13,175 nt of DNA from a virus (Duplodnaviria; Heunggongvirae; Uroviricota; Caudoviricetes), in the IMG/VR virus record IMGVR_UViG_2579778919_000007, one strand, 5' to 3'. Each line of letters begins with the position of its first letter. Positions within the stretch are counted from its first letter, which is position 1. This document shows positions 9,001 to 13,175 of the stretch, piece by piece. Made by a program: the position numbers.

Positions 9001-12000
9001 ACGACGAAGCGCACACTATCCAGCTAATCAAAGCGACTGACTTTGTACCGCCGCCTACGTTGCAACCAACGTTTAACCCGCTGACGGATAATGTTGTCTC
9101 GCTCGACCTGACAACGGGGAGCGAAGAGGATGCGGCTAACGAACTGGTTCACGCTATTAAAGCTGCTGTTAATCGATTCCTAACTGAAAAAGATATTCCG
9201 GTGGCGGAGCTGTGCCTTCTCATCGACCCAGCTTGGTTCAGCATCCTGATGGAACATAAGAAGTTGATGAACGTCCGTTACAGCCGGGATAGTGGCAATG
9301 ATTACGCATGGCGTCGCGTTGGCTATGTCGCTGGGGTGCGAGTTATTGAGCTGAACAGTTACCCGCAGGAAGCCATTACCGCGCATGAACTGGGCGCTGA
9401 TTATGATGTGACCGCAGGGGAAGCGCTGACACGGGCGACGCTGTTCCGGCCTGCGTCTGTACTTGTGACAGTCGAAGCGCAGAGCGTTATCAATCGCCAG
9501 TGGGATGATGAACGCGAAATGACAATGGTGATGGACTCATATCGCCTGTTCAATGTTGGGCTGCGCCGCCCTGACTGCGTTATAAATTTCCGACAAGCTG
9601 CATAACAAAAGGGGCCGAGCCATGAATATTGATGCTTATGCCCCGGAGCTGTTGCGCTCTTTGTTTCGGTACGATGCGAAGACTGGCCGCCTGTTCCATG
9701 CAGTAGACCGGATCGGAGCCAACAAGCGGATTTACGCTAAAGCCGGGGAACTGGCCGACACGGTAACGGACAGCGCCGGATATAGGCGCGTATCTGTCCG
9801 CATCAATGGCAAATCTCATGCGCTATACGCCCACCGTGTCGCCTTCATCATTGCTAATGACGGTATCCCTGCCGGGATGCAAATCGACCATATCAACGCG
9901 GTACGCGATGACAACCGCCTTATCAATCTCCGCACGGTTACGCCACAAGAGAACCAGCACAATTACCGCAAAGCCAAGGGTTATAGCCACCATGCCTGCT
10001 CTGGCAGATGGGAGGCTTACATTCGCGTTGGTGGTGTTCGCCATCACCTCGGCTTATTCACTACCGAAGCGGCGGCGCGTGCTGCGTACCTGAAAGCTAA
10101 AGCCAGATACCATCCGTCAACGCCAGCCGATTTATTGCAGGCTGCCTAATCCTCGGAGGTTCCATTAATGGCTGATGAAAAGCCGATTAGAGCGCTGGCA
10201 GATGATGACCCGCGCCGCCAGCGGTACGCTGAACTGTTGGCGCAGGCTGGCCGCATGACTATTCCACGGCTGCATCCGGGCGATGCTAACAGTGTTATGA
10301 GTCAGCTTGCGACAATGCTCGGAGCACCTGTCCCGATAGTAGGTGCTATGACTGAGCACGCCGCTGCATGGCGTGCCTGTCTTCTGGAGCAAGGGCTTGG
10401 TGATCTTCTGGATGGCTTGAGTAAGCAGGTGCTGACCATCTTCTTTCTGCTCTGCTGGAGAGACAGCGCCTTGCGATTGGCGGGTAAGCAAAAGGAACGG
10501 TTTGCAGCGGCCAGCGAGGGTTTGACCATTGAGCAATACCGGGCAATGCACCCGGCTTACAGAGAGGATAAAGAAAATGATAACCACGATTAAATTAAGG
10601 TGGCGGTACATCGAGCCGCCACCAATGACTGGCGCACTCGCTGACCTGAAACAGTGGGTAATGGATACCGGAGAGCCTGAGCTTGAAGCTAAATTTCGTA
10701 AGCTGCTGGGGCTGATGCGCCGCAATGGTATCAGTGACGAACGTGTTAATGCGATGGCCGCCGAGCTTTATGCTCTGGTATGCCAACGCCAGCGCGAAGA
10801 ATACGAAGCCTGCAAACGGGCTGCATCTGACAGTGGAGGCTTTGAATCATGGTTACACGGACAGACCAACTACTAAGAAAAGCGATGCGAGGCTATCTGG
10901 AATATCTCGGCAACATGCCGCTAGCGGAACGCATTAAAAATTCTGCTGCGTTCGATGATGTGTATCACTTCCTGTTGAATGGTTCAGGACGGCTGGAGTT
11001 GCGCCGCGCTGATGTGGCCGCTGTCCGTGTCTTCCTGTGGAATTATCAATACCGACGCTGCGCGGTGACAGCTAAGCCGCTACGCCTCGCGTCTGCTGTA
11101 TTGGATCACTGTCACCGAACTGGACGTGTGCGCGCTGTGGTTCATCGTTCGGCCAATGCAGCGGAAGGTGGTTATTATGTGGGAAATTTGTGCGGACTCT
11201 CACGAGGTAGCATGTTAAGCATGCTACCTGCCTACCGCCGACAATACAAGGGGTTGGGCGTTATTTATCCAAGACAACATGCGTGATGAGATTATTTCTT
11301 TTATTTTCATTCGGTTATGTGTTGTTGTGGCTGCCTTGTTACTTGCCTATATTTAAAACAATTCTTGACGGATTGACGTAGATTGCGTAGGCTGAGCATA
11401 AAACAGTTTCCTAATATGTCTCCAAACTGAGCTTCAACTTGAGAATACTTCGTTCCTACATCTCCCTTGAAGGGGTAGGAGGATAATATGAACTTTGATA
11501 TGCGTACAAACCAAAATTGTGCATCGTTTTTTAACCCAGCAACCAAGGCGTTTGTCGTCGTTGATTCGTTTGACAACTACGAATTCGATGTGCGTGCTGG
11601 TACTTTATCACGCACTGAATTTGTAGGCACCATCACAGCTTCAAACGATGAAGAGTTGAACAAGAAATTAGCTGAGATCACGGCTGCACACATATGATAA
11701 CTCAACAGCAGATTGATGATTTAGTTGCAGATATTAACGATATCTTGGAAGAAGATAGAGCCAAGCTAAAGATGTCATTTCATTTTGCTGTTGATAGACT
11801 TAATGATCCGCGTAATAAACCTCCAATCACGTTAGCTGAGTTGAGAGTGATTTTTACAAATTTCATTGGACAACACTTGCAGACAATTCTAGGCAAAGAT
11901 GAGGGATTTTCCTTCACTATCAAGTGTCAGAAATCTGGTATTGCTATACCGTGCGCTATAGAGCATGAACTTGATATCGGTGCAAAGTGGGTAGTTCAGC

Positions 12001-13175
12001 AAGTGATCACCATCATGCGGAATCCGCAGTTTAACGCGTATCATGGTGATGTCATCTTTGATGTTTAAAAGAAAGGCGCTATAGCGCCTTTTTTATAAAC
12101 ACGGATAACTGACCAACTCCACATACTCCCATAGTTCTTTCATCCCTGCTCCCTTGCTATATGTCCTGAAAGCTTCCGTTTTAGCTTTTTGTTCGGTATG
12201 CCCGGTTATTGCCCCTATGCGCTGTTCTGGTACTCCTGCTCTGTCTAAGCAAGTAATAAAGTGACCACGCAGGGAGTGGAAGCATTGGCGATCTGTAGCC
12301 GCTGACAGCACGCGACGGCGTAGCCGTGTAAATGCCTGCGAGTACCACGGGCCACGCTTACCGTCGGCACGTTTAATCTTGTTCGATTGGGGGAGCAGGT
12401 ATTCACCGTTGTTCTGCGCAAGGTATTTATCAACGATGCTGATTAACAGCGAGTGTATGGGGACGTGCCTTACACCCGCTTTAGTTTTAGATTTGCTGAC
12501 GTAGAAGCAGCGTACCCCTTCAACTTTGATAATCTCAACTCGTTTGATGCTGGCGATTTCGTCGAGACGCATACCGGAATACAAACCGATTATGATTACG
12601 TCTCGTATCTCGCTACCTGCCTCTTTTATTAATGCCTGTAGCTGGTGTAGTTCAAAAGGTTGATAACTTTCGTTCGTCTGGCGGGCTTCCAGATTGTGGC
12701 CGTGAAAGGGATTATCAGGGGCGATATTGTCATATTTACGCCGGGCGAAGTCATACAGCGTCCCTAAGCAGGTTAACCAGTTTTGCAGCGTCTGGCGGGA
12801 AAACTTATCTTGGTTCGCTTCCAGAAAGTCAGAGACGAGCCGCCGCCCGATTCCATTTATTGTAATGGTTGGGCGTTTTATTGAATTAGTAAATGCCGAT
12901 ACAGCGCGAACTGATTTACTCAGCGTGGAATAAGAGCGCCGATCTTTGTATTGCTCTGCATATTCTTTACTGACATCTGTCAATTTTGGTGATGCTGGTT
13001 TTCCCCGCTCTGCTGGAATAGTTGCGGGTGTGGTAATGCTGCTGGATACCCCCGCCAGCAAGTGAAGATCTGTTACAGCGGAATGAATCCGGGTAATGGG
13101 GTTATCCGGTTTCATCATGAGCTGTAGCTTACGGAACTCTAATAAATATTGGTCACGGAAAATGCGAGCTTGCAT

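Follow-up and report, generated by a model that had tools for sequence, protein, structure and literature searches.

A KreTA toxin-antitoxin cassette in the integrase-proximal cargo slot of a satellite-like Escherichia coli island

We analysed a 13,175-nucleotide stretch of DNA from a Caudoviricetes virus record (IMG/VR IMGVR_UViG_2579778919_000007; the whole stretch is called the window below) and found that the two-gene cassette next to its integrase gene is almost certainly the KreTA type II toxin-antitoxin (TA) operon. The window was 100% identical to NZ_LR536431.1, the chromosome of E. coli VREC0864. RefSeq places WP_001008346.1 at locus 16201-16410, which is window 11488-11697, and WP_000632671.1 at locus 16407-16781, which is window 11694-12068. 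The cassette was assigned to KreTA because these accessions match those of cloned and tested proteins: WP_000632671.1 is the toxin KreT and WP_001008346.1 the antitoxin KreA (accessions in the methods of Sci Adv 2025;11(40):eadz8560; PMC12487901; bioRxiv May 2025). KreTA is already known, having been published in October 2025 on these exact proteins. An earlier note made from the sequence alone (the initial annotation) had proposed an uncharacterised TA or defence system; the TA part was confirmed by the identity of the proteins, and the word "uncharacterised" is out of date.

In the published work, KreT was toxic and KreA neutralised it, and KreT selectively inhibited the incorporation of 3H-methionine, not that of thymidine or uridine (PMC12487901). 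A KreA-KreT dimer was confidently predicted in which KreA covers KreT's predicted ribonuclease (RNase) active site, and it was concluded that KreT may cleave mRNA; the paper holds neither an RNase assay nor a phage challenge. Relatives of the two proteins were not identifiable by sequence in the viral database of that study, and the setting of KreTA was termed "prophage regions", with satellites and hotspots not discussed (PMC12487901). A literature search returned no further paper on KreTA.

The features of the cassette, in window coordinates, are as follows.

11364-11404, plus strand: promoter-like conserved block with TTGACG, TTGACG and ATTGCGTA, then TAGGCT/CATAAAA; putative function.
11477-11482, plus strand: Shine-Dalgarno sequence AGGAGG, 5 nt before the kreA ATG and identical in locus L015.
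11488-11697, plus strand: kreA, 69 aa, ATG start, isoelectric point (pI) 4.6; antitoxin; WP_001008346.1.
11694-12068, plus strand: kreT, 124 aa, ATG start, pI 5.2; toxin with a predicted RegB/RelE-like fold; WP_000632671.1.
12069-12096, no strand assigned: hairpin AAAGGCGC-TATA-GCGCCTTT followed by a T-run, forming a bidirectional intrinsic terminator where kreT and int converge.

The ATG of kreT overlaps the TGA of kreA in the ATGA at 11694-11697, and both overlapping open reading frames (ORFs) of the initial annotation were recovered at their positions. Both ORFs matched PHROG families (3.6e-39 for kreA, phrog_14630; 4.1e-65 for kreT). In comparison with the copy in another island, the codon changes in kreA were 8 synonymous and 0 non-synonymous, and those in kreT were 21 synonymous and 10 non-synonymous, a pattern indicating that purifying selection acts on both. 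On the basis of these PHROG matches and this codon-change pattern, kreA and kreT are real genes rather than chance ORFs. The GC content was 0.419 in kreA, 0.387 in kreT and 0.378 in the upstream intergenic region, compared with 0.548 in the operon at 7348-11286, and the GC content at third codon positions was 0.43 in kreA and 0.37 in kreT, compared with 0.59 in the capsid and HNH genes. The low GC content of the cassette relative to the operon (approximately 40% versus 55%) and its strong ribosome-binding site, both noted earlier, were therefore borne out by measurement and by the location of AGGAGG at 11477-11482.

RNA folding of 12060-12105 produced a perfect GC-rich hairpin (-20.2 kcal/mol, z = -7.4, 0 of 200 shuffles equally stable) bordered by a run of A on one flank and a run of T on the opposite one, in agreement with the strong bidirectional terminator that had been described there. 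A pattern scan of the cassette end missed this terminator, apparently because the A/T flanks pair and lengthen the stem. At the other end of the cassette, two copies of TTGACG (11365-11370 and 11373-11378) precede a degenerate TTGCGT (11383-11388). The best promoter reading is a predicted -35 element TTGACG (11365-11370), a 17-nt spacer and a weak -10 element TAGGCT (11388-11393). The block CTTGAC..ATTGCGTA..TAAAA was kept upstream of the cargo in three contexts, namely the window, the island of strain A16 (YafO cargo) and the second island family described below (L015, kreTA cargo). In these, a block of approximately 40 nt with the repeats GATTGACGTA and GATTGCGTA lies at window 11364-11404, L008 11747-11790 and L015 ~5877-5920, respectively; the homology with A16 stops at 11389 and that with L015 starts at 11374. 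Judged from this conservation, the block could be a shared promoter/operator or a recombination junction for cargo exchange. Of the promoter with tandem TTGACG repeats that had been proposed, the repeats are thus present and their block is conserved, whereas a scan for the strict consensus called no promoter.

The slot between the endonuclease VII gene and the integrase gene is a real cargo hotspot. In the sister islands, homology to the window ends inside or just after the endonuclease VII gene and restarts in the integrase gene, and the slot is occupied as follows.

Strain 5735: empty.
NCTC11023: DUF3606 protein and a hypothetical gene.
E2348/69: 300-aa gene on the minus strand.
A16: YafO-family toxin (L008 11977-12450).
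LD26-1 and WP8-S17: 214-aa gene.
LT883142: 242-aa protein and a TIR-domain protein (L032 6812-8154).
22AR0118: cytosine methyltransferase and a 358-aa gene (L033 6654-8805).

The yafO gene of A16 is preceded by a small ORF that follows an AGGAGG site and carries no annotation.

The cassette was detected in 1 of 5,426 complete E. coli genomes, which was the source genome itself. In an assembly collection, the identical 69-aa protein was found in more than 1,600 blocks, with a 124-aa gene after it in every place that was read. The pair was also found in a second island family (L015, L017 and Yersinia enterocolitica loci), which has a lambda-E-type capsid and a different integrase; here too, it lies directly before the integrase gene. 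Between the two families, the cassette was 90-98% identical, whereas the 3' half of the adjoining integrase gene was 62-83% identical, indicating that the cassette was exchanged more recently than its flanks. The initial annotation had called the pair horizontally acquired, integrase-proximal cargo and had suggested a comparison of homologous islands. That view is upheld: the flanks were conserved (86-90%), the slot was empty or differently filled in the sister islands, and the cassette was common to a second island family.

KreT is predicted to have a RegB-like structure and the alpha-alpha-beta4 fold of the RelE/ParE superfamily. Its closest structure is RegB, and the top structural matches are RNases. 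In an alignment of 43 sequences of the KreT family, H30, R40, T106 and R109 were invariant and F31, R35, N37, D38, N41, I45, E49, P86, M108 and F113 were nearly so. Profile-profile alignment (hhalign) of the KreT family with the RegB family (50-odd homologues) reached 24.3 as its local score (P = 0.0019, probability 14%), compared with approximately 12 for reversed profiles and 19.2 for the best among 40 column shuffles. The sequence signal linking KreT to RegB is therefore weak, being above the controls, marginal and short of a family-level match. In this weak alignment, H30 of KreT falls on H48 of RegB and D34-R35 on D51-R52. The catalytic histidines of RegB are H48 and H68 (PMC3014915). On balance, KreT probably acts by endoribonucleolytic cleavage, with a predicted site formed by H30, R35, R40, T106 and R109. 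KreA is acidic and by eye would be mostly beta with one C-terminal helix.

Several results weigh against this reading of the cassette. Neither KreA nor KreT matched a model at E <= 0.1 in Pfam (including the RegB, RelE and ParE models) or NCBIfam (including RelE, ParE, HigB, YafQ and YoeB). Two of the checks suggested in the initial annotation also came back empty, as neither protein matched a PADLOC-DB v2 model at E <= 0.1 and Foldseek returned no match for KreT in the Protein Data Bank (PDB); a profile search of PDB sequences gave a single meaningless match (E = 1.3). The second catalytic histidine of RegB, H68, falls on the non-conserved T55 of KreT in the weak alignment. RegB is described as a basic protein, whereas KreT is acidic (pI 5.2). 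The fold of KreT is common to ParE gyrase poisons, and the fold alone therefore leaves the target unfixed. Finally, the strict sigma-70 consensus scan found no plus-strand promoter at the cassette.

An exhaustive profile search with KreT retrieved 364 cluster representatives at E <= 1e-3, comprising stand-alone proteins of 120-150 aa and domains inside long viral proteins, where they are joined to CTP_transf_like, Zeta_toxin/AAA_33, DUF5824 and other domains. One protein of 3,359 aa (P0065) bears eight KreT-matched stretches, and gene calling may have merged separate genes into some of these very long proteins. The idea that these long proteins carry KreT as a polymorphic-toxin C-terminal domain was dropped, since the partner domains are viral and the matches lie in large phage genomes. 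The KreT-like domain has no Pfam model and is listed in PHROGs as of unknown function. Distant members match the C-terminus of phrog_23027 and belong to large virulent myoviruses (Sinorhizobium phages phiM12 and phiN3, Methylophilales phage Melnitz, and Paraglaciecola and Flavobacterium phages), in which they are annotated as hypothetical. The phiM12 protein, gp458, is 602 aa long (L020 2040-3848) and has the KreT-like domain at its C-terminal end, whereas the Melnitz protein has 149 aa. In both phages the KreT-like gene is upstream of the primase gene, with a few genes in between.

The pairing of KreA with KreT was checked by hidden Markov model (HMM) scans of six-frame translations. KreA was located directly upstream of a KreT gene of 124-127 aa in every temperate or metagenomic context that was read; its 69-aa homologue preceded KreT in E. 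coli, Yersinia, two Uetakevirus phage records and metagenome contigs. In the Uetakevirus records, the pair lies between tailspike/antirepressor-like genes and a large virion-protein gene. The pairing persisted down to 38% KreT identity, where the KreA-type proteins were 46% identical. A 132-aa protein (P0021) joins the C-terminal helix of KreA in frame to the N-terminal part of KreT; it is either a natural fusion or the product of a frameshifted or truncated contig, and shows the same adjacency either way.

Each partner was also found by itself in virulent phages. In the T4-like phages phiM12 and Melnitz, the KreT-like domain stands alone, with no KreA detected within 3.5 kb. A KreA homologue with 57.6% identity (tblastn; HMM E = 4.9e-26) is present in the virulent Erwinia jumbo phage Kaldavass (PQ464595.1 320271-320483; L004 4001-4213), among genes for PhoH, Sir2, Nudix, RNA ligase and nucleotidyltransferase proteins. 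No KreT was detected in the 8 kb read around this gene or by tblastn of the phage collection, and blastn of the cassette against that collection also gave nothing. The nucleotidyltransferase gene downstream of the Kaldavass kreA was considered as a fused KreT domain and rejected (BLASTP E = 2.0, HMM negative). It is possible that this solitary KreA is a decoy antitoxin.

The element that carries kreTA spans the region from the tRNA-Gly gene beside actS to a tyrosine integrase gene, and its main parts are listed here.

2637-11286: stretch of the host island with the recombinase, helicase, scaffold-like, major head, HNH and endonuclease VII genes.
Gene order: serine recombinase, RecQ-like DEAD/DEAH helicase, several small ORFs, scaffold-like protein, major head protein, HNH endonuclease, endonuclease VII, kreTA and, on the opposite strand, integrase.
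12093-13175, minus strand: island tyrosine integrase (Pfam Phage_integrase 4.2e-10), the 5' end cut by IS1 just past the window.

The major head protein matched phrog_267 (2.8e-67). Because no terminase or portal match was obtained among the island ORFs scanned, the element looks like a satellite-like, capsid-encoding island of approximately 13 kb rather than a full prophage. Its capsid-HNH-endonuclease VII segment was found at 86-90% identity in 60 of the 5,426 complete genomes, including that of enteropathogenic E. coli E2348/69, and a literature search gave nothing specific as a name for the island family. In other strains the integrase has 406 aa, and it is intact, for example, in GCA_900450495.1. 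Here, IS1 has inserted 11 nt into the full-length gene (junction at L014 7815/7816), the start codon is lost, and the annotated 360-aa ORF begins at an internal ATG that is the end of the window. This strain's copy of the island has probably lost its mobility.

Two further observations concern the remainder of the island. The helicase (window 3606-5450) matched the PADLOC model PDLC02858 "DpdF" over residues 111-614 with 888 bits, and no other dpd gene was found nearby; the model probably captures the lineage of island helicases, not a Dpd system. The left arm (window 1-2636) has a lower GC content, 0.38-0.47. It contains a 259-aa gene on the minus strand (phrog_19541, of unknown function) and two overlapping genes of 75 and 153 aa without family matches, and RefSeq annotates nothing at approximately 1611-2636. 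The left end differs among the sister islands as well: A16 has an XcyI restriction-modification system there and NCTC11023 a DUF3800 protein, and the left arm may be a second cargo slot.

In the mechanism that we propose, a constitutive or weakly regulated promoter near 11365-11400 would drive one bicistronic kreA-kreT mRNA. The strong AGGAGG would load ribosomes on kreA and the ATGA overlap would couple the translation of kreT to it, so that the toxin would not be made without the antitoxin. The small acidic KreA is expected to bind KreT and mask its active site, and free KreT, with its predicted RegB/RelE fold, would bring translation to a stop, with mRNA cleavage as the most likely means. 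The operon as a whole is exchangeable cargo in the integrase-proximal slot of an E. coli island at the tRNA-Gly locus. We infer that the conserved block serves as the kreTA promoter and that the module may contribute to island maintenance or phage defence.

The TA reading could be extended, without being displaced, by what KreTA is selected for. One possibility is anti-phage abortive infection or the exclusion of competitors to the benefit of the island, in which infection lowers or inactivates KreA and the freed KreT stops translation; we advance it tentatively, as a real but minority possibility. It would fit the cargo of the sister islands, whose slots hold a TIR-domain pair, a cytosine methyltransferase with its partner and a YafO toxin and whose left end also varies, with XcyI restriction-modification in A16. 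A KreA for which no KreT was detected, as in Kaldavass, is likewise what a phage-borne decoy antitoxin would look like. However, hotspot guilt by association is weak evidence, and the pair is a rare one, detected in 1 of 5,426 complete E. coli genomes. Many TA modules only stabilise the element that carries them, which also counts against a role in defence. In addition, PADLOC has no model for the pair.

KreT could instead be a life-cycle RNase like T4 RegB that cuts specific host or helper mRNAs after induction, with KreA as a timing brake and not an addiction antidote. RegB being the closest structure and the solitary KreT-like domains in primase-proximal blocks of phiM12 and Melnitz would agree with such a role, but the pair lies outside the island operon and has its own promoter-like block and terminator. 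Moreover, sister islands have either nothing or other genes in the slot; the island life cycle can therefore do without kreTA, and we consider this explanation improbable. That KreT is a ParE-like gyrase poison, or acts on another non-RNA target, is an option left open by the fold. It is very improbable in view of the labelling results, which show a selective loss of methionine and not of thymidine or uridine incorporation (PMC12487901), and of the structural matches, which are headed by RNases, with the invariant histidine of KreT aligned to a catalytic histidine of RegB.

A wider and more doubtful proposal builds on the abortive-infection reading. KreTA might be a module for abortive infection that is exchanged among capsid-encoding satellites by way of an integrase-proximal cargo slot with its own promoter. 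It might also belong to a much larger, unannotated family of RegB-like RNase domains that virulent T4-like phages use without an antitoxin and that some jumbo phages counter with solitary KreA decoys. If true, a three-way arms race of satellite toxin, phage RNase and phage antitoxin would be played out on one fold. The value of the present work as a discovery is small, as the pair was named, cloned and shown to be a TA system in 2025; the increment is context. KreTA was placed in the cargo hotspot of a poorly described island family, and its cassette moves between families. A large unannotated family of phage KreT-like proteins with a conserved core was delineated, with a weak, above-control link to RegB. 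A counter-defence that could be put to the test is suggested by the solitary KreA of a virulent jumbo phage, and these findings could guide studies of phage defence and RNase mechanism beyond PMC12487901.

Like P4-like elements and PICIs (phage-inducible chromosomal islands), the host island combines a conserved backbone with a variable slot for TA, restriction-modification and TIR-type cargo and has a second variable end; unlike them, its backbone gene set is not known to fit any P4-like, PICI or capsid-forming PICI (cfPICI) layout. RegB, an mRNA-cleaving enzyme with GGAG specificity and stimulation by S1, is not known to have an antitoxin. KreT differs from T4 RegB (PDB 2hx6; PF10715) in having no Pfam match, in offering no conserved counterpart of H68 and in being acidic rather than basic. 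It also stands outside the sequence families of the RelE/ParE superfamily (RelE, HigB, YafQ, YoeB and ParE), and, in a further difference from RelE/ParE-type TA systems, no ribbon-helix-helix, helix-turn-helix or Phd-type DNA-binding domain was detectable in KreA. With the KreTA of PMC12487901, the cassette shares identical proteins, the same gene order and the same integrase and capsid-gene neighbourhood. The module itself shows no difference; what differs is the setting, here an island of approximately 13 kb, and the range of relatives, which were found here in Uetakevirus records, T4-like phages and a jumbo phage.

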